Shown: positions 128 through 20,379 of the stretch, one piece after another
Position numbering within the stretch: position 1 is the stretch's first letter
How the letters are laid out: the number at the start of each line of letters is the position of its first letter
From: a virus
Virus record (IMG/VR): IMGVR_UViG_3300031825_000010
Location: 1-61,488 of that record
DNA: 61,488 nucleotides
Reading direction: 5' to 3' (one strand)
Translations under genes and position numbers: made by a program
The notes under the pieces: generated by a model
The model's database searches: none
Seen by the model: the letters and a program-made list of their open reading frames with translations, nothing else
What the model was told of the DNA's origin: nothing

Positions 128-1895
128 GGATGTGCGCTATCACGAAATTCCTGTCGATCACGGAAAGGCCGGATTTGACCGCGATGGACAAGTCCTATTC
201 CTTCGGGAAGCGTCTGTCGGTCTGGCAGATGCCGCTAAAGAAAAACGGGACAGCATCGATGTTCGTGTGGCAAAAGCGAAGGAAATCATCGAATCTGATC
301 CAGATGCGCATTTCATCCTGTGGCACGATTTAGAGGACGAGCGCCACACGATCAAAAAGGCGATGCCGGAAGTCGTGGACATTTACGGGAGCCAGGATTA
401 CGACATTCGTGAACAGCGCGTGATCGACTTCTCGAATGGAAAGATCAAATACTTTGCTACGAAAAAAGAGTTGTCCGGATCCGGATGCAACTTCCAACGT
501 CATTGTCATCGGGCAATCTTTGTCGGCATCGACTATCAATTCAATGACTTCATCCAAGCCATTCACCGGATTTACCGCTTTCTCCAGACGGAGAATGTCA
601 TCATCGACATCATCTATATGGAGAGCGAGAAGGAAATACTGCAGACGCTCCTGCAGAAGTGGAAGCAGCACGAACACATGATTGAGAAGATGATCGAGAT
701 CATCCGGAAGTATGGTCTTTCCGGAACATCGGTTATCGACAAACTGGCCAGAAGCATAGGAGTTGAGCGTGTGAAGATCGAGACGGAATATTACACCGCG
801 GTCAATAACGATTGTGTTCTTGAAACGGCCGAGATGGAATCAGAAAGCGTAGGATTAATTCATACCTCCATCCCATTCGGCAACCATTACGAGTATTCAG
901 CGAGCTACAACGACTTCGGTCACAACGAGGATACAGAAAGGTTCTTCGAGCAGATGGACCACCTCACGCCTGAACTTCTTCGAGTTCTAGTGCCCGGCCG
1001 GGTGGCGGCGATACACGTCAAAGATCGAGTTCTCTTCGGTAACACGACCGGCGACGGCATGCCGACGATTGAAGAGTTTCACGCCGATTGCATAAAACAC
1101 TACAAGAAACACGGCTTCCGGTACTGCGGGATGATTACGGTTGTGACCGATGTCGTCCGCGAGAACAATCAGACCTATCGTCTCGGCTGGGGCGAGGTTT
1201 GCAAAGACGGATCGAAGATGGGTGTCGGTTGTCCGGAATATATTCTCCTATTCCGTAAGCTGCCGAGTGATACAAGCACGGCGTATGCGGACGTCCCGGT
1301 CGTCAAGAACAAGGAAGACTATACCCGAGCTCAATGGCAGTTGGACGCACATGCGTATTGGCGATCGAACGGTGACCGGCTGATGACGAAAGAAGAACTT
1401 GTTTCCCTGCCTGTCAGTAAGCTGCAGGCGGCTTATCGTAAGTTCTCGCGCAATTCAGTTTACAGCTATCAAGAGCATGTCGAACTTGCGAAAAAACTCG
1501 ATAAAGATGGAAAGTTGCCGGCCTCATTTATGGTTGTCGCTCCGGGTAGTTGGACGGATGAGGTATGGGATGATGTTAACCGGATGAAAACGCTGAACAC
1601 ATCACAGAGTCAGAAACGGCAGCAGATGCACGTCTGCCCTCTCCAGATCGACATCGTCGAGCGGATCATCAACCGCTATTCCAATCCTGGGGACGTTGTA
1701 TATGACCCTTTTGGTGGCCTTATGACAGTCCCGGTAACAGCGGTGAAGATGGGCCGAAAAGGTTTGGGATGTGAGTTGAATGTCGATTATTTCCGCGATG
1801 GTGTTGGATATCTGAAAGCAGCCGAAGCGGAAGTCGGAGTGCCGACATTGTTTGATCTTGAAGATTTGGTTGTCGGTACTGGAGGGTTGAAATGA
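1..1895 (+). CDS. SNF2-family helicase / DNA methyltransferase fusion, C-terminal part (continues from 60737..61361 across the junction)
   Basis: The frame is open from the window start (codons at 3, 6, ...). 625+1895 nt = 840 codons in frame. Helicase C-terminal motifs (QRHCHRAIF, QAIHRIYR) are followed by MTase motif IV-like TSIPF and motif I DPFGGLMT, the beta-class order. Confidence 0.85.
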   Translation, partial: NNLTLYPHKEDEFWLWVSTWALFITKPSDLGYEDTGYDLPPLDVRYHEIPVDHGKAGFDRDGQVLFLREASVGLADAAKEKRDSIDVRVAKAKEIIESDPDAHFILWHDLEDERHTIKKAMPEVVDIYGSQDYDIREQRVIDFSNGKIKYFATKKELSGSGCNFQRHCHRAIFVGIDYQFNDFIQAIHRIYRFLQTENVIIDIIYMESEKEILQTLLQKWKQHEHMIEKMIEIIRKYGLSGTSVIDKLARSIGVERVKIETEYYTAVNNDCVLETAEMESESVGLIHTSIPFGNHYEYSASYNDFGHNEDTERFFEQMDHLTPELLRVLVPGRVAAIHVKDRVLFGNTTGDGMPTIEEFHADCIKHYKKHGFRYCGMITVVTDVVRENNQTYRLGWGEVCKDGSKMGVGCPEYILLFRKLPSDTSTAYADVPVVKNKEDYTRAQWQLDAHAYWRSNGDRLMTKEELVSLPVSKLQAAYRKFSRNSVYSYQEHVELAKKLDKDGKLPASFMVVAPGSWTDEVWDDVNRMKTLNTSQSQKRQQMHVCPLQIDIVERIINRYSNPGDVVYDPFGGLMTVPVTAVKMGRKGLGCELNVDYFRDGVGYLKAAEAEVGVPTLFDLEDLVVGTGGLK

Positions 1896-2365
1896 AGCTA
1901 TTCAATTTTGCTTTAGGAATTATTATCGGAGCCGGGTTGATTTTCTTTCAACCTTCCGATGCCGCGCCGGATCCTGAAATCAAGACGGTCGTCCAGACAA
2001 AATACATTACCAAAACCGAATACGTGAAAGTCAACCAGACAGAGCCAATGGAGATGACGGTTACGGCTTACACAGCGGGGCCAGAGTCAACGGGGAAGCG
2101 TCCGGGGGATAAAGGATATGGCATCACTTTCACAGGTACTCAGGCTCGTCCTGGAGTGTGCGCGGTAGACCCCAACTACATTCCACTCGGCTCATCGCTC
2201 TACGTCGAGTCGTATGGTTACTGTCGGGCGGAAGATATCGGAGGGAAGATCAAAAAATGGCACATAGATGTATTTATGGAAAATGTTGACGAAGCCTTTG
2301 AGTTCGGCAGGGAAAAGAGAAAAGTTTGGATACTGAATGACTATGGAAAGGAAGAAGATTCATGA
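1892..2365 (+). CDS. Secreted/membrane-anchored 3D-domain (RlpA-like DPBB) cell-wall protein
   Basis: N-terminal hydrophobic segment FALGIIIGAGLIFF. The C-terminal region reads VTAYTAGPESTGK..GVCAVDPNYIPLGS..DIGGKIKKWHIDVF. ATGA overlap with the upstream gene. Confidence 0.7.
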   Translation: MKLFNFALGIIIGAGLIFFQPSDAAPDPEIKTVVQTKYITKTEYVKVNQTEPMEMTVTAYTAGPESTGKRPGDKGYGITFTGTQARPGVCAVDPNYIPLGSSLYVESYGYCRAEDIGGKIKKWHIDVFMENVDEAFEFGREKRKVWILNDYGKEEDS

Positions 2366-2844
2366 ATAATGCGGATTCGTTGCCTGAAAGATTCCGATTA
2401 AAAATTAATTTCACTGAATCTTGTTGGTTGTGGAAAGCGGGAAAAACAAGCGGCGGATATGGTTACTACAAGTCGAAAGGCAAACAATTTCCTGCTCACC
2501 GTTTTTCGTGGATACATTTTAAAGGTTCTATCCCAGAAGGGTTGTTCGTTTGCCATAAATGTGATGTGCGAACGTGCGTGAATCCGGATCATCTATTTCT
2601 CGGGAATAATCAAGAAAATACAGCAGATAGGCATAACAAAGGAAGAACTGCAAGCCTCGAACGAAATGGGAACTCCAAACTAACAAGTAAAGAAATAGAT
2701 GAAATAAGAAGGTTATATCGACCCGGACACGCCCCTTTCAAAAGTGAGTTTTCAACAAAATCGTTAGCAAAAAGATTTGGTGTAAGCCAAACACATATTT
2801 GTAGAATTGTAAATCAACAAAGTTGGAGGAGTGGTGTAATTTGA
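2362..2844 (+). CDS. HNH homing endonuclease
   Basis: CWLWKAGKTSGGYGYY..AHRFSW..VCHKCDVRTCVNPDHLFLGNNQENTADR, a typical HNH_3 pattern. Confidence 0.85.
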   Translation: MNNADSLPERFRLKINFTESCWLWKAGKTSGGYGYYKSKGKQFPAHRFSWIHFKGSIPEGLFVCHKCDVRTCVNPDHLFLGNNQENTADRHNKGRTASLERNGNSKLTSKEIDEIRRLYRPGHAPFKSEFSTKSLAKRFGVSQTHICRIVNQQSWRSGVI

Positions 2845-3014
2845 AGCGAATTCGCGGAATTAATCCAACACTCAAACAGGCCATGATCATTCAAGACAAC
2901 GGCCATGATTATCGAGACTATCTTGTTAAAAAGGTGTTGAGCGATCGTCTGGAGATCGTTCACCGATTTACCGGGGAAAGTAAAAACGCATTCTTCGAAA
3001 CGGTGAAAGTATGA
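2823..3014 (+). CDS. Hypothetical small protein (start uncertain; TTG 2841 possible)
   Basis: ORF packed between flanking genes with a stop/start overlap. No recognisable motif. Confidence 0.35.
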   Translation: MEEWCNLKRIRGINPTLKQAMIIQDNGHDYRDYLVKKVLSDRLEIVHRFTGESKNAFFETVKV

Positions 3015-3310
3015 GTCGCAGCCAAGCGATTATCGACTTCATCAGCCAGTATATTCAAAAGAATGGTTACTCACCGACAACCAGAGAAATTGCAGCTGCT
3101 GTCGGTTTGAGTTCACCGTCAACGGTAACAGGACACCTTAACCGCCTCAAGAAAAAGGGACTCGTTGATTTTGAACCTTATGAAGTTCGCACGATACGGA
3201 TAGTTGATCATACACATTCGGACGAGCTTCCCGTTGTACTGGAAAAGCAGCATGGCGTTCCAACATCAATAAAGTGGCAGGGAAGGATTTATAGATATGA
3301 TCCGGGGTGA
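3011..3310 (+). CDS. LexA N-terminal winged-helix DNA-binding domain protein (no peptidase domain)
   Basis: GYSPTTREIAAAVGLSSPSTVTGHLNRLKKKGLV matches the LexA_DNA_bind pattern. The protein is only 99 aa. Confidence 0.7.
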   Translation: MSRSQAIIDFISQYIQKNGYSPTTREIAAAVGLSSPSTVTGHLNRLKKKGLVDFEPYEVRTIRIVDHTHSDELPVVLEKQHGVPTSIKWQGRIYRYDPG

Positions 3311-9956: not shown

Positions 9957-10157
9957 TCATGATCGAAAATGAATTGAGACAGAATCTACTTTTGCAATTG
10001 TTTCTCCAGTTGCTGCATTCGCAATTGAAACATCATGGCCGACAACGCACTTCGAATCCAAGATATTTGTTATTAGTGACATGGCATGATCGGCTCCAAT
10101 TAATCCGCCAACCCATCTTCTTTGAACATCTTGAATTTCGTCAAATTTAGTTTTCAT
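9957..10157 (-). CDS. Hypothetical small protein co-transcribed with the XRE regulator
   Basis: 66-aa ORF overlapping the XRE gene end by 11 nt and followed by the terminator. Confidence 0.5.
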   Translation of the reverse strand: MKTKFDEIQDVQRRWVGGLIGADHAMSLITNILDSKCVVGHDVSIANAATGETIAKVDSVSIHFRS

Positions 10158-10374
10158 TTACGTCCTCCTCGGGAATATATTCAACAAGTTCATCAATCGA
10201 TTTAACGTTGAGAGCCCTTGCTATTTTTTCGAGATTTTCCGGTGACCACTGTTTAGCTTTGTTATTGACCATATCGCTCACAGTATTCGGTCTAATGCCC
10301 GTTGCAATGTGAAGCTTATACATAGACCATTCCGGTCGTTTCTCAAGTATCTTATCAATCTTTAATCGGATCAC
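10147..10374 (-). CDS. XRE-family helix-turn-helix transcriptional regulator
   Basis: MYKLHIATGIRPNTVSDMVNNKAKQWSPENLEKIARALNVKSIDELV. GTG start with SD GGAGGAGG. Confidence 0.8.
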   Translation of the reverse strand: MIRLKIDKILEKRPEWSMYKLHIATGIRPNTVSDMVNNKAKQWSPENLEKIARALNVKSIDELVEYIPEEDVNEN

Positions 10375-10395: not shown

Positions 10396-10424
10396 AATGT
10401 AACAAAAAAAGTTTAACGAATCAA
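10396..10424 (-). promoter_or_regulatory. Putative sigma-A promoter of the XRE gene
   Basis: Minus strand reads TTGATT-17 nt-TACATT, upstream of the SD and GTG. Confidence 0.45.
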
Positions 10425-10434
10425 GTTAAAAGTA

Positions 10435-10463
10435 TTGACGCTTAACGAAATTCGTTATATTAT
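10435..10463 (+). promoter_or_regulatory. Putative promoter of the small-ORF/ribozyme operon with an embedded palindromic operator
   Basis: TTGACG-17 nt-TATTAT. The spacer contains the perfect palindrome TAACGAAATTCGTTA (10443-10457). Further TTAACGAA half-sites are nearby. Confidence 0.55.
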
Positions 10464-10502
10464 TAGTACAGACGATAAACGTTAAACGAAATGAGTTATT
10501 AA

Positions 10503-10735: not shown

Positions 10736-10957
10736 ATGGTCATAAAAGAAGATGGATATCAGCCCTACTTCCGCGCCTTCATATTACATCAGAGATTGAA
10801 GATAGGGGACGAGGTTACGGGTCATGAATACATCACCTGGAACATGAATAAATGGAGTGAGTGGCGGAAGCTAAATGGCATACCACAGCATTTCCCAGCA
10901 ACACCAGAACATCATCGCGCTTTTGGAAAATGGCTATTTGAGACAATCCCCGCCTGA
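10736..10957 (+). CDS. Hypothetical small protein (73 aa) whose stop codon lies in a hammerhead core
   Basis: ATG 10736 follows SD GGGAGG. The ORF ends ..ETIPA-TGA-TGA inside CUGAUGA. Confidence 0.55.
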   Translation: MVIKEDGYQPYFRAFILHQRLKIGDEVTGHEYITWNMNKWSEWRKLNGIPQHFPATPEHHRAFGKWLFETIPA

Positions 10958-11024
10958 TGATGACCGGAGGGAAACCGGTCGAAACCATCTCGTTGACTTC
11001 AACGAAATGGTCGCGGATATCCGC
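10947..11024 (+). ncRNA. Hammerhead ribozyme motif, type I topology (copy 1)
   Basis: CCGC-CUGAUGA(10954-60)-U-GACCGG/CCGGUC-GAAA(10981-84)-11-bp stem III-GUC|GCGG. Predicted cleavage is after 11012. Confidence 0.85.
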
Positions 11025-11047
11025 AAAAAAACTTGGGAGTGATAACA

Positions 11048-11191
11048 ATGCAAATAACATTCAAAGTTTCAATGGAAACCAAATCCGGGAAAGTGGTTTC
11101 GGGGATCGTGAAAGCAACCAATGAAAAGATGGCCCAGCTTATCGCCTCTAAGAAGTTTAAAGGGAACAAGAACATCACCGTTTCCGCCTGA
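11048..11191 (+). CDS. Hypothetical small protein (47 aa; absent from the ORF track because it is under 60 aa)
   Basis: SD GGGAG, then ATG 11048. MQITFKVSMETKSGKVV..NITVSA-TGA-TGA, with the stop inside the copy 2 core. Confidence 0.5.
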   Translation: MQITFKVSMETKSGKVVSGIVKATNEKMAQLIASKKFKGNKNITVSA

Positions 11192-11258
11192 TGATGGCTG
11201 GATGGACACCAGCCGAAACCATGTCGTTGCTTCTAACGATATGGTCGCGGATATCCGC
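11181..11258 (+). ncRNA. Hammerhead ribozyme motif, type I topology (copy 2)
   Basis: CCGC-CUGAUGA(11188-94)-U-GGCUGG/CCAGCC-GAAA(11215-18)-10-bp stem III-GUC|GCGG. Predicted cleavage is after 11246. Confidence 0.85.
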
Positions 11259-11280
11259 AACAAACAGAGGAGGGAATCAA

Positions 11281-11454
11281 ATGTACAATGTATCTTTCGA
11301 TGGCATTCAAACCAAACTGCAACGCGCATCGGAGAAAGAGGTTAAAAATTTCCTTTCGCTCTTCAACTGCAAACCGAGAGTCGAGGAAAATGTAGGCATC
11401 GTCGGAAAATGGATCAGCAAAGGTGGAAGGTATATTGATGTAACGTCCGCCTGA
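11281..11454 (+). CDS. Hypothetical small protein (57 aa)
   Basis: SD GGAGGG, then ATG 11281. Ends ..IDVTSA-TGA-TGA inside the copy 3 core. The upstream part of track ORF 11191..11454 overlaps ribozyme 2. Confidence 0.55.
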   Translation: MYNVSFDGIQTKLQRASEKEVKNFLSLFNCKPRVEENVGIVGKWISKGGRYIDVTSA

Positions 11455-11513
11455 TGAGTCTGGAGGGACACCGGACGAAAGACCGTCGTGATGACGGACT
11501 CGCGGATATCCGC
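11444..11513 (+). ncRNA. Hammerhead ribozyme motif, type I topology (copy 3, canonical core spacing)
   Basis: CCGC-CUGAUGA(11451-57)-GUCUGG/CCGGAC-GAAA(11477-80)-stem III-CUC|GCGG. Predicted cleavage is after 11501. Confidence 0.8.
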
Positions 11514-11617
11514 TTAACGTTCGCCAAGCACGGTGGACGCTATGATGGCCCGGTGCAATTCGGCCACTTTACATAGATGCTCTATGAAAATCAAATAAGA
11601 TCACGGAGGCAGAGAGA

Positions 11618-12199: not shown

Positions 12200-12883
12200 A
12201 TGTCTCATCAAACATTTTGGAAGCCAGAAAAACAAGTGAAGGAAAAACCGCGTAATAGTCTCCTTAACCGGAAACCGAAGGAGAGAAAGGAAGTTCCAGA
12301 GTGGAAGAGGGGCATTCTTTCGCATCATCTCTCCAATCCATCGAGAGCAGATCGAGCAGAGTTCCCGAGAGATGTAATCGCGGCGGCTATCGAACGGTCG
12401 GGCGGAATCTGCCAGTACTGCAAGAAGGTTCCCTGCACAACGACGCATCACGTCAAGGGTCGCGGCGGGAGGGATGGACGGGGAGTCCTCTCCAATGCCT
12501 ATCGTGTTTGCGGAAAATGTCATATTGAGATCGAAGGGAGCGAAGAAAAGAAACAAGAGATCATCGAATTATATCGGCAATTATACGGCGAGTTCTTCTG
12601 GTTTGATCAGCAAGATTGGGATGAATACGGGCGCAAACAAGCGGCATCACGAACGGCAGAGGAAGAACAAAAACAACGCATGGAACGGATTAACCCTGTG
12701 ATTGATTTGTTGGCAGCGGCGGCTGGAAGAAGATTAAAAGCCGGAGAAATCCGTTTGATTGATGGGATGGACGATAGAGAAGTTGCAATATTCGCAAAAC
12801 TCATGTCCGATGTTGTTTCTGCTGGTTCAGATCCGGTTAAGCCAAAAGGTTCTGAAGCATATGGACATTATTTTGAAGATTAA
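12200..12883 (+). CDS. HNH-nuclease domain protein
   Basis: GGICQYCKKVPCTTTHHVKGRGG..VCGKCHIEIE shows the CxxC..HH..CxxCH arrangement. Confidence 0.7.
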   Translation: MSHQTFWKPEKQVKEKPRNSLLNRKPKERKEVPEWKRGILSHHLSNPSRADRAEFPRDVIAAAIERSGGICQYCKKVPCTTTHHVKGRGGRDGRGVLSNAYRVCGKCHIEIEGSEEKKQEIIELYRQLYGEFFWFDQQDWDEYGRKQAASRTAEEEQKQRMERINPVIDLLAAAAGRRLKAGEIRLIDGMDDREVAIFAKLMSDVVSAGSDPVKPKGSEAYGHYFED

Positions 12884-16623: not shown

Positions 16624-17172
16624 ATGAAAAATGAATATGAGGTACGCGGGGATGTAACAGCCATTTTTATTAAATGCCATGGGAGAATATTTGAAACAAT
16701 AATTGATACGTGCGACTTACCGCTTGTGAAATCATATCCAACCAGATGGTATGGCTATTTACATCGTGATCGAGTGTATGTCGTAGGAAATATAAACAAA
16801 GGGAATGAAAAATCCAGGCAACTTCACCGTTTGCTAGTGGGTGATCCAAAAGGTTTAGTAATAGATCATATCAATCACGATACATTGGATAACAGAAGAA
16901 GTGTAAATCTTCGCGTTGTGACCAATGGAGAAAATTTGCAAAATCTTAAGATTAAGAAAAACAATACAAGTGGACATAGGGGAGTTGATTGCGTAAAAAC
17001 AAAAACAACATGTGTTAGATGGAGAGCGAGGGTTAAAATAAATGGACGTGTAATACAAAAGAATTGTCTTTCAAAAGAAGAAGCTATCGCCTTGACGATT
17101 GAATGGAGATCAAAGTATATGCCATATTCACAAGAGGCTATGCAATTGAAATCCGTAGTAACAACGAAGTAA
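16624..17172 (+). CDS. HNH endonuclease with AP2-like DNA-binding domain (homing endonuclease type)
   Basis: HRLLVG..VIDHINHDTLDNRRSVNLRVVTNGENLQN, then SGHRGV..RWRARVKINGR..EEA. Confidence 0.8.
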   Translation: MKNEYEVRGDVTAIFIKCHGRIFETIIDTCDLPLVKSYPTRWYGYLHRDRVYVVGNINKGNEKSRQLHRLLVGDPKGLVIDHINHDTLDNRRSVNLRVVTNGENLQNLKIKKNNTSGHRGVDCVKTKTTCVRWRARVKINGRVIQKNCLSKEEAIALTIEWRSKYMPYSQEAMQLKSVVTTK

Positions 17173-18844: not shown

Positions 18845-19549
18845 ATGGGACGCCAAAGAGATCCGAATAGAGACAAAGCAAAAGAAATCTATATCGCATC
18901 AAAAGGCGAAATCAATCTCATTGACATCGCCGCTCAGCTTGGGGTATCTGATGGAACGGTAAGAGGGTGGAATGCGAAGGACAAGTGGGAGAACCTGATT
19001 TTCGAACAACCAAAAGTGACAATAAAGGAAAAGATGCATGCATTAAAGCAAGTTGCAATGCGTATAGGAATGATTGGACCTTTGAGAGAAATTTGCGATT
19101 CACTTGGGGATAAAGTTGAAATAAATAAGCCGTTAGTATTTCTGACGATTTGCCAGTACCTCAGAGATGATATATCAATATGGCAGAAATACGCTTGTGC
19201 AATGATCCTTGACTATTACATCCCAAAATGGAGAGAAATTGTACCGGAAGTACTCGGCCCAATCATAGATCGTGACTCAAAAGAAGTTAGGAAATGGCGC
19301 AAAAGAGTCCTCGAAAGAGATGGTTTCAAATGTGTTGAGTGCGGGAACAAAGAGAACTTAGAGGCGCATCATATCTTGCCATGGTCAACTTTTCCCGATT
19401 TAAGAACAGACATAAATAATGGGAAAACTTTGTGCAACGAATGCCATGCAGGAGAACATGAGCATGACGGCGTTGAACATCTCATATTGTCACGATCAAA
19501 CAAAACAAACAACACTAACCATAATTTGTCTGTGGGGTGTTGTGGATGA
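18845..19549 (+). CDS. TerS-like HTH / HNH endonuclease fusion (terminase-associated HNH)
   Basis: The N-terminus IDIAAQLGVSDGTVRGWNAKDKWE parallels the TerS N-terminus. The C-terminus reads GFKCVECGNKENLEAHHILPW..LCNECHAGEH. Confidence 0.75.
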   Translation: MGRQRDPNRDKAKEIYIASKGEINLIDIAAQLGVSDGTVRGWNAKDKWENLIFEQPKVTIKEKMHALKQVAMRIGMIGPLREICDSLGDKVEINKPLVFLTICQYLRDDISIWQKYACAMILDYYIPKWREIVPEVLGPIIDRDSKEVRKWRKRVLERDGFKCVECGNKENLEAHHILPWSTFPDLRTDINNGKTLCNECHAGEHEHDGVEHLILSRSNKTNNTNHNLSVGCCG

Positions 19550-20379
19550 AGAGCGGCAGCGAATTGAATAAAAAAGCGATACGTTCCGAATTCGAAAGGA
19601 CTGATATTTCATTAAAGAATCTAGCCGACAAATATTCCATCAACTACCAGACTATCAAGAGTTGGAAGTCACGCGAGAAATGGGATAAGGTTGCAACCGA
19701 ATCAAAAGAAGTTGCAACCAAAGCCGAGAAGTTGCAACCGAAGAAAGGTGCGCCTAGCGGAAATAAGAACGCCGTTGGAAATGAAGGTGGTGCTCCGTTA
19801 GGTAATAAAAATGCTGTCGGACACGGCGCTCCTCTTAGAAATTCAAATGCAGTTTCGCACGGGTTGTTCCGCAACTTTCTGCCAGACGACGATGAAACTC
19901 GGGAGATTTATGATGCAGCCGGAAGCATTAGCCCGATCGATATTTTATGGGAGAATATTCAGCTTAAGTTCACAGCTATCATCAGAGCCCAGAAGATCAT
20001 GTTTGTTAGTGACCATAATGACATGACGAAGGAAATCCGCAAAACGAAGCTTATCGACCAGGAAGGATTCGCAATGGATGAAAAGGAATGGGAAATTCAA
20101 TTCGCGTGGGACAAGCAGGCTACGTTCCTAAATGCTCAATCCAGAGCTATGAGCACTCTAACATCTATGATCGGTAAATATGAAGAGATGTGCCGGTTAG
20201 GATGGGCAGATGAGCAACAAAAACTACGGATTGAGAAGTTGAAGTTGGAGGTCCATAAACTTGCCAATCCTGATGATGGGGATGCAGACGAGGAACTTAT
20301 TCAAGATTGGGTTGGGGCGGTGTTAGGAGATGGCGACGGAGAGAGTGAAGTCGACGGAGACGAAGAAGGAGATACGTAG
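19537..20379 (+). CDS. terS: Terminase small subunit (ATG 19546 is the likely start)
   Basis: HTH YSINYQTIKSWKSREKWD plus repeats GAPSGNKNAVGN / GAPLGNKNAVGHG / GAPLRNSNAVSHG. Sits immediately upstream of terL. Confidence 0.75.
   Translation: MLWMKSGSELNKKAIRSEFERTDISLKNLADKYSINYQTIKSWKSREKWDKVATESKEVATKAEKLQPKKGAPSGNKNAVGNEGGAPLGNKNAVGHGAPLRNSNAVSHGLFRNFLPDDDETREIYDAAGSISPIDILWENIQLKFTAIIRAQKIMFVSDHNDMTKEIRKTKLIDQEGFAMDEKEWEIQFAWDKQATFLNAQSRAMSTLTSMIGKYEEMCRLGWADEQQKLRIEKLKLEVHKLANPDDGDADEELIQDWVGAVLGDGDGESEVDGDEEGDT
19690..19739 (+). repeat. Three phased GTTGCAACC repeats inside terS (candidate pac/TerS-binding site)
   Basis: GTTGCAACC at 19690, 19711 and 19731, spaced 21 and 20 bp. Each contains the palindrome GTTGCAAC. 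Confidence 0.4.

Follow-up and report, generated by a model that had tools for sequence, protein, structure and literature searches.

The window analysed here, the whole stretch of 61,488 nucleotides (nt) of the virus record IMGVR_UViG_3300031825_000010 (IMG/VR), raises the question of why, at three places between positions 10,736 and 11,513, a small open reading frame (ORF) ends inside the catalytic core of a hammerhead ribozyme, and of what such ribozymes do between phage genes. Each of the three ORFs closes with (C/T)CC GCC UGA UGA. The last two sense codons encode the 5' strand of stem I, the stop codon is formed by core nucleotides U4-G5-A6 (10955-57, 11189-91 and 11452-54), and U7-G8-A9 provides a second UGA in frame. 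These details, first pointed out in a sequence-only reading of the DNA, proved exact in all three units, and the encoded proteins of 73, 47 and 57 aa, when compared directly, were mutually unrelated, as that reading had also held. It had further proposed that a ribozyme cassette was fused to different ORFs at a fixed register and that translation termination controls cleavage. We found instead that the units belong to a large family of phage type I hammerheads in which the register of the upstream stop varies but the ribozyme is almost never translated. The arrangement is probably best explained by intercistronic mRNA processing together with genome compaction, the overlap of stop codon and core resulting from the compaction.

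The units share a common order of CCGC, the core CUGAUGA, a 6-bp hairpin with a 7-nt loop, GAAA, a 7-12-bp hairpin, U-C, GCGG and AUAUCCGC, with CCGC-CUGAUGA located at 10950-10960, 11184-11194 and 11447-11457. Three helices surround the core, of which stem I is open (4-5 bp) and stems II and III are capped, the topology of type I. The full conserved core (C3 U4 G5 A6 N7 G8 A9...G12 A13 A14 A15.1...U16.1 H17) was present in 3/3 units, including the A15.1-U16.1 pair and GAAA. Stem II reads GACCGG/CCGGUC, GGCUGG/CCAGCC and GUCUGG/CCGGAC in units 1, 2 and 3, respectively, the differences being compensatory, and stem III (7-12 bp) likewise varies among units by compensatory changes. Stem I (CCGC/GCGG) and the 12-nt palindrome GCGGAUAUCCGC are identical across the three, the chance expectation for three exact copies of this 12-mer in 61 kb being about 0.007. 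Similarity among the units starts exactly at CCGC and stops at ...CCGCA. The extra U that separates A9 from G10.1 in units 1 and 2 is the norm, being found in 67/98 distinct ribozymes of the family. All three units lie on one strand, 234 and 255 nt apart, with one small ORF ahead of each. At the DNA level, GCGGATATCCGC (11013-11024, 11247-11258 and 11502-11513) is a perfect palindrome with an EcoRV site; as RNA, it might form a 12-bp intermolecular duplex between two cleavage products.

Source loci for a family comparison were taken from IMG/VR with the pattern CCGC-CUGAUGA...GAAA...UC-GCGG (at least 120 loci) and with a variant carrying C or A at position 7 (also at least 120 loci). A covariance model (R1), built from 59 diverse hammerheads of other viral contigs (alignment A1) with the window excluded, gave scores of 62.1 bits for unit 2, 56.5 for unit 1 and 47.5 for unit 3 (E 1e-15 to 1e-11). 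Because nothing else in 61 kb exceeded 10.5 bits, the score of the next-best match with filters off and both strands searched, the window holds exactly three members of the family. In alignment A1, stem II was 98% paired with compensatory changes at 4/5 pairs, and stem III was 93% paired with compensatory changes at 6/7 pairs; the observed pairing of the two stems was reached by 0/500 shuffles, and slid registers also fell far below it. In addition, complementarity between loop II and the 3' tail averaged 3.62 bp, compared with 2.98 bp when tails were permuted among ribozymes (maximum 3.16), and the partners covary, as in UGGC:GCCA, UGGU:ACCA, GGUU:AACC and GAC:GUC. The predicted minimum-free-energy fold of unit 2, calculated without pseudoknots, is the full three-way junction. 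A blastn search of the region against 50,697 GenBank phages returned no match.

The small ORFs ahead of the units have the properties of genes, to different degrees. The frame ending in the UGA is the only long open frame 5' of each unit (108, 64 and 97 codons vs at most 27 in the other frames), and 15/34 long ORFs of the phage end in UGA, an ordinary stop codon there. A Shine-Dalgarno (SD) sequence precedes each ORF at a spacing of 6-12 nt (8 nt for ORF2 and 7 nt for ORF3). On a codon-usage score trained on the long genes of this phage, in which true genes score 0.27 +/- 0.11 and off-frames about -0.56, ORF1, ORF2 and ORF3 score 0.11, 0.33 and 0.28, the other frames at ORF1 scoring -0.5, and in the 5' two-thirds of ORF1 only its own frame is coding-like. 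Automatic gene calls on an identical ENA metagenome contig (L287) contain ORF2 and ORF3 with these stops. ORF1 was not called; in its place is a 55-aa ORF running through hammerhead 1 (window 10875-11042; L287 2258-2425), and a 40-aa ORF was called from an AUG inside the core of hammerhead 3 (window 11454-11576; L287 2837-2959). We dropped both alternatives, which lack an SD sequence, the 5' region being coding in the ORF1 frame only; they are probably annotation artefacts from unrecognised ribozymes.

Could the small ORFs not be genes at all, the locus being a non-coding ribozyme array or a set of decaying copies in which the in-frame stops are coincidental? No homologues of ORF1-3 beyond the proteins themselves were found in collections of 5.8 billion and 1.8 billion proteins, PHROGs and Pfam gave no match for the small ORFs, the gene caller missed ORF1, and the chance level of three in-frame stops is only about 0.04; yet every ORF has an SD sequence in place, ORF2 and ORF3 score as true genes do where off-frames score -0.4 to -0.7, and the cores are intact and the stems compensated. 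ORFan mini-genes are, moreover, typical of phage early regions, and more than 100 independent loci repeat this architecture downstream of genes that are clearly coding. We therefore regard a non-coding locus as very improbable.

The register, defined as the position of the upstream-gene stop relative to U4, was measured across the family in three ways. By the longest-ORF method, genes upstream of U7 cores stopped on the core UGA in 13/63 cases and on a stop of their own at -8 to -13 in 37, with 1 inside the ribozyme, and genes upstream of non-U7 cores (C or A, with no second UGA) did so in 30/77 and 29 cases, respectively, again with 1 inside. When the upstream proteins were grouped into 132 C-terminus clusters, 35% used the core UGA, 43% stopped at -8 to -13, 21% stopped further upstream (14-51 nt 5' of U4) and 1.5% stopped inside the ribozyme. 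When the frame was instead assigned by locus-trained codon usage over the 50 codons before -15, ignoring ORF length, 40 genes stopped on the core UGA, 60 at -8 to -15 and 0 inside the ribozyme, with 2 low-scoring read-throughs. Random frame entry without an own stop would carry two-thirds of the genes into stem II, whereas 40-46 were observed to stop on the core UGA and 0-2 to continue beyond it. Upstream genes thus stop at or just before the 5' edge of the ribozyme and almost never read into it, a strongly non-random placement, and use of the core UGA as the stop is a common, optional, space-saving arrangement found in about a third of the family.

The proposal of a fixed-register fusion did not survive this survey, in which relatives had variable registers, with the core UGA used in 35-40% and an own stop 8-15 nt upstream in 43-59%. 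For example, the nearest relatives, which have the same AUAUCCGC tail, divide 4:4 (offsets 0, 0, 0, 0, -8, -8, -12 and -14), and the register varies even among ribozymes of one phage (-26, -9 and 0 in L108; -14, -9 and 0 in L218). Homologous upstream genes occur with both registers, as in L048 (0) vs L017 and L258 (-25) and in L093 (0) vs L108 (-26). The relative with offset -12 is the hammerhead of viral contig L189 (8938-9008), whose stem II, loop II and tail are identical to those of unit 1, but which has C at position 7, its own UAA and a different stem III; this comparison suggests that modules are exchanged, or that stem III and the upstream-gene junction turn over rapidly. Likewise, the idea that the tandem UGA is selected was contradicted by the greater use of the core UGA in non-U7 cores (30/77 vs 13/63), the second UGA being incidental. 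An apparent excess of in-frame back-up stops (e.g. UAA CCC GCC UGA) was lost when one representative per upstream-protein cluster was counted, the own-stop frames being even (25:20:25). The chance of finding the core-UGA register in all three window units is 1/27 with random frames; the units are, however, paralogous copies and thus not independent in such a calculation. Other viral contigs, L038 (- strand, 669-3265), L030, L069 and L226, carry five to six family hammerheads in an array, 240-970 nt apart; most share stem I, and the array of L214 mixes GUGG, GCAG and GCGG variants of stem I.

A second regularity lies on the 3' side of the cleavage site. In the family survey, the next start codon follows the cleavage site at a median of 43 nt (interquartile range 35-55) and its SD sequence at a median of 29 nt; the space between two genes is therefore taken up by the ribozyme with its tail. 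A complementary tetramer follows the stem I 3' strand at 3-9 nt far above the chance rate, with CCGC within 16 nt downstream in 72% of cases vs a background of 9%. Specifically, ribozymes with the 3' strand GCGG are followed by CCGC in 100/162 cases and by CCAC in 45/162, those with GUGG by CCAC in 15/23 and by CCGC in 2/23, and one ribozyme with GCAG is followed by CUGC. The downstream tetramer thus covaries with the 3' strand of stem I (Fisher 1.4e-6 and 6.5e-4, values inflated by kinship among the loci). Target-site duplication was considered as the origin of the CCGC...CCGC flanks and rejected, as in ribozymes combining an upstream CCGC with a 3' GUGG the downstream tetramer follows the 3' strand (CCAC 4, CCGC 1; small numbers).

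The covarying complement predicts a 5'-terminal hairpin on the downstream cleavage product. In the window, both downstream products are predicted to begin with such a hairpin, formed by GCGGAUAUCCGC (-6.7 kcal/mol), and in folds of the uncut RNA predicted without pseudoknots, stem I and the GCGG-AUAU-CCGC hairpin are nearly iso-energetic. The earlier expectation that the next SD sequence would lie 12-25 nt behind the new 5' end held for units 1 and 2, where the distance is 22 nt, and failed for unit 3, where a conserved spacer of 103 nt precedes it.

These two regularities bear on whether translation gates cleavage, that is, whether termination at or just before the core lets the ribosome melt the core and the 5' strand of stem I, so that GCGG parks on CCGC in an inactive state and the RNA is cut once upstream translation ends. 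In about 78-80% of independent members the stop falls on U4 or no more than 13 nt upstream, within the footprint of a terminating ribosome. Steric occlusion of stem I and the core by the terminating ribosome, as claimed in the sequence-only reading, is supported, and during termination the ribozyme must be unable to fold in about 80% of the family, the window units being no special case. The covarying alternative partner of the stem I 3' strand would supply a defined off state, and the two structures, stem I and hairpin, are predicted to differ little in energy, with unit 1 folding into the hairpin and unit 2 into stem I. The ORFs are also short (47-73 codons), so that ribosomes could arrive before cleavage, the rate reported for a pseudoknot hammerhead being >1.2 per minute at 0.5 mM Mg (PMC3088659). 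However, coupling is not obligatory, the stop lying 14-51 nt upstream in 21% of members, and no register, frame or tandem UGA is selected; tight spacing between a stop and the next element is expected from phage compaction anyway. Furthermore, RNA polymerase outruns ribosomes in Bacillus-like species (PMC13323073), leaving the nascent RNA free to fold and cut, and a natural precedent was not found in the literature searched. We consider gating by translation unlikely on balance. Less likely again is a ribosome-operated three-state switch, in which the translated RNA is off with GCGG on CCGC, stem I forms and the RNA is cut when translation stops, and GCGG then caps the new 5' end. If true, hammerhead arrays would turn translation history into ordered, irreversible severing, and the units would represent a natural translation-sensing self-cleaving ribozyme.

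The identity of the CCGC/GCGG-AUAUCCGC flanks in 3/3 units also suggests another fate for the products, in which the 5' end of a fragment (GCGGAUAUCC...) docks into the hammerhead at its own 3' end and is re-ligated, giving circles of 234 nt (11013-11246) and 255 nt (11247-11501) with one small ORF each. Both lengths are multiples of 3, tandem hammerheads of the family are often spaced 230-580 nt apart, the reverse reaction is also catalysed by hammerheads (PMC6765202), and circular RNAs arise from tandem ribozyme pairs in retrozymes and possibly in totiviruses. Nevertheless, Perreault et al. sought spliced or circular products of prophage hammerhead clusters and found none (PMC3088659), the in-frame stops of the ORFs leave no obvious gain from circular translation, and the conserved downstream complement would sequester the 5' end from ligation. 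Spacings between neighbouring cleavage sites that are multiples of 3 amount to a weak trend (11/21 distinct spacings, not significant), and we dropped this candidate regularity. Circular products are accordingly rated extremely improbable.

Intercistronic processing with compaction may proceed as follows. The polycistronic transcript would be cut after 11012, 11246 and 11501 into single-gene mRNAs, with 2',3'-cyclic phosphate ends and 5'-OH ends, as in hammerhead chemistry (PMC6765202). The upstream piece would keep its own stop and terminate in stems II and III and the cyclic phosphate, a blocked, structured 3' end; that the upstream ORF retains an intact stop and a structured 3' end had been anticipated and follows from the type I topology, which places the core and stems II and III on the 5' product. 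The short stem I would let the products separate. The downstream piece would begin with the 5'-OH G of GCGG, and the freed GCGG would pair with CCGC a few nt downstream, forming a hairpin at the 5' terminus, followed by an A-rich spacer, the SD sequence and the start codon. Re-ligation would be disfavoured by this hairpin, which would also make the cut effectively irreversible and bury the 5' end. In Bacillus and other Bacillota, RNase J1 acts on the 5'-OH ends that the glmS ribozyme generates, and mRNAs are stabilised by 5'-proximal stem-loops; the hairpin is therefore plausible as a protective cap that would shield the 5'-OH end from RNase J1. Since translation should not enter the ribozyme, the core UGA would be the last permissible stop, and its overlap with the upstream gene a product of compaction. 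The data show that the units are hammerheads of this family, how the registers are distributed and that the complement covaries; we infer cleavage in vivo, stabilisation of the product ends and this selective reason for the overlap.

Several observations weigh against this interpretation. The window pseudoknot consists of GGA:UCC only (3 bp), while the nearest relatives have GGAUA:UAUCC or GCGGA:UCCGC (5 bp). None of the Rfam 15 hammerhead models matched the window or 14 related loci at the gathering threshold, and a permissive scan (E 10 or less) gave a sole match, of unit 3 to RAGATH-1 at 17.1 bits vs a threshold of 56.3; we explain the miss by the additional U and by stem I being short and open, the motif itself being present. 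Membership of the RAGATH-1 pseudoknot hammerheads was dropped as the architecture differs, helix II being a normal 6-bp hairpin here. In unit 1, stem I has 4 bp and the minimum-free-energy fold, predicted without pseudoknots, favours the downstream hairpin over it; cleavage of this unit might consequently be slow, with a short stem I and a competing hairpin. Coding support for ORF1 is weaker than that for ORF2 and ORF3, and ORF1-3 stand without homologues in the protein collections named above. The offset of 0 in 3/3 units is somewhat above the expectation from the family rate (p about 0.04 at a family frequency of 35%). As to the survey, the at least 120 loci of each pattern scan have a mostly fixed stem I sequence, ORFs were assigned heuristically, and the dereplicated loci are still partly related, which inflates the p-values through kinship. 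Lastly, the suggested stabilisation of the product ends draws by analogy on general knowledge of RNase J1 and of Bacillus stem-loops.

Systems that process mRNA between genes offer several comparisons. In phage T7, according to what is reported of the work of Dunn and Studier, RNase III cuts the early polycistronic mRNA into monocistronic mRNAs whose retained 3' hairpins stabilise them. There the agent is a host enzyme recognising double-stranded RNA, whereas here the RNA is predicted to cut itself, leaving 2',3'-cyclic phosphate and 5'-OH ends. Collins et al. in 2007 are said to have found that in Bacillus subtilis the 5'-OH product of glmS is degraded by RNase J1, turning the gene off, a metabolite cofactor being needed. 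As with glmS, a ribozyme-made 5'-OH in a Bacillota mRNA would set the fate of the downstream RNA; unlike glmS, the 5'-terminal hairpin of the window is predicted to protect the product, and no ligand is implied.

Closest to the present units are the prophage clusters described by Perreault et al. in 2011 (PMC3088659), who found pseudoknot-stabilised hammerheads of all three types, including clusters flanking single prophage genes. Three such clusters cleave in vitro and in E. coli, and their proposed role is to cut long phage transcripts into gene-length mRNAs (PMC3088659). As in those clusters, several hammerheads a few hundred nt apart flank small, varied phage genes (three here and up to six in relatives); clusters of this kind are already known, and our three units are added members. 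Stop codons, ribosomes and a downstream complement of stem I are, in contrast, not mentioned in PMC3088659, and Rfam 15 models derived from such hammerhead collections miss all members tested here. The layout also resembles that of synthetic RiboJ insulators (PMC7536230), in which a hammerhead is followed by a hairpin, a spacer, and the SD sequence and start codon; cleavage strips the upstream context to give each cistron a standard 5' untranslated region, and the cleaved mRNA was reported to be more stable than the uncleaved one. The likeness is one of layout, an insulating function here being conjectural. For RiboJ, a type III satellite-RNA hammerhead was engineered and an independent 23-nt hairpin added, whereas the hairpin of the window uses the 3' strand of stem I and, being built from it, could exist only where stem I does not, in the cleaved product or in an inactive conformer. 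RAGATH-1 (Rfam RF03152; crystal structure PMC11300833) likewise combines a hammerhead core with a pseudoknot, but there the pseudoknot, to which an additional upstream stem-loop contributes, takes the place of helix II, whereas here helix II is normal and its loop pairs with the 3' tail.

The surroundings of the array were also examined (Table 1). The hammerhead units lie after the replication module and before the packaging module. Genes for replication, for a C5 methylase and for a DUF5131 protein lie 5' of the operon, and two more mini-genes, an HNH endonuclease gene and, further on, terminase and portal genes lie 3' of the units. Half-matching copies of the operator-like palindrome TAACGAAATTCGTTA flank it on both sides (10414-10428 and 10484-10498), and a related sequence, CTTAACGTTCG, is located at about 11513, after hammerhead 3. 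Hammerheads that share the AUAUCCGC tail are almost confined to Paenibacillus and Cohnella genomes, and the best matches of the HNH gene and of the gene after hammerhead 3 are also in Paenibacillus and Cohnella; homologues of the latter, 63-aa gene lie directly 3' of an equivalent hammerhead in Paenibacillus ginsengihumi (L124) and a viral contig (L121). From these occurrences, the host is probably a member of the Paenibacillaceae; the phage is a probable Paenibacillaceae siphovirus, with an operon that is probably repressor-controlled.

Downstream of hammerhead 3, a module at 11514-11600 consists of a covarying hairpin followed by CTTTACATA(G/T)AT..TCTTTGAAAAT, and is also present in the Paenibacillus and Cohnella prophage loci L122, L123, L127, L129, L132 and L133. 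It occurs as a single copy in the window and, at a spacing of about 12 nt, matches a sigma-70 promoter poorly; candidate roles are a late promoter used by a phage factor, a site related to packaging or another RNA element. Further along, an ORF at 18845-19549 has the N-terminus of a terminase small subunit fused to an HNH domain, and the overlapping next ORF (19537-20379) resembles a full terS, so that an HNH insertion may have split or duplicated terS at 18845-20379. Two further HNH genes are located at 12200-12883 and 16624-17172.

Table 1. Positions of the hammerhead units, the small ORFs and neighbouring features in the window (HTH, helix-turn-helix)
Feature	Position	Strand	Remarks
Cro/CI-type HTH gene	10147-10374	-	Divergent from the promoter
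Sigma-70-like promoter	10435..10463	+	TTGACG-17-TATTAT; likely drives the small-ORF/hammerhead operon
Operator-like perfect palindrome TAACGAAATTCGTTA	10443-10457		In the promoter spacer
First small ORF of the operon, 59 aa	10518..10697	+	Own UAA stop, no ribozyme after it; codon score 0.18
ORF1, 73 aa	10736-10957	+	Ends CCC GCC UGA (IPA); stop is U4-G5-A6 of hammerhead 1
Hammerhead 1, type I	10950..11024	+	56.5 bits, E 3.7e-14 (covariance model); stem I 5' strand 10950-53; core C3-A9 10954-60; extra U 10961; stem II/loop 10962-80; GAAA 10981-84; stem III 10985-11010; U16.1-C17 11011-12; GCGG (stem I 3' strand) 11013-16; tail AUAU-CCGC 11017-24; predicted cleavage GUC/G, 11012/13
ORF2, 47 aa	11048-11191	+	SD GGGAG 11035-39; ends UCC GCC UGA (VSA); stop is U4-G5-A6 of hammerhead 2
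Hammerhead 2, type I	11184..11258	+	62.1 bits, E 9e-16 (covariance model); CCGC 11184-87; core 11188-94; extra U 11195; stem II/loop 11196-214; GAAA 11215-18; stem III 11219-44; UC 11245-46; GCGG 11247-50; AUAU-CCGC 11251-58; predicted cleavage GUC/G, 11246/47
ORF3, 57 aa	11281-11454	+	SD GGAGG 11269-73; ends UCC GCC UGA (TSA); stop is U4-G5-A6 of hammerhead 3
Hammerhead 3, type I	11447..11513	+	Canonical CUGAUGAG...CGAAA core; 47.5 bits, E 1.6e-11 (covariance model); CCGC 11447-50; core 11451-57; stem II/loop 11458-76; GAAA 11477-80; stem III 11481-99; UC 11500-01; GCGG 11502-05; AUAU-CCGC 11506-13; predicted cleavage CUC/G, 11501/02
Conserved motif CTTTACATAGATGCTCTATGAAAAT	11567..11591	+	Hairpin ahead of the motif; same module after this hammerhead type in Paenibacillaceae prophages
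First gene 3' of hammerhead 3, 63 aa	11618..11809	+	SD 11605-11609

Sharing of the core UGA as a stop (about a third of members), the near-absence of read-through, and the covariation between stem I and its downstream complement were not found in the literature searched. One practical consequence concerns annotation, in that gene callers mis-annotate such regions and Rfam 15 misses the whole subfamily. The three rules of this family make the idea that phage hammerheads process mRNAs testable, through predictions on protection from RNase J1, dependence on translation and trapping of the cleavage products.

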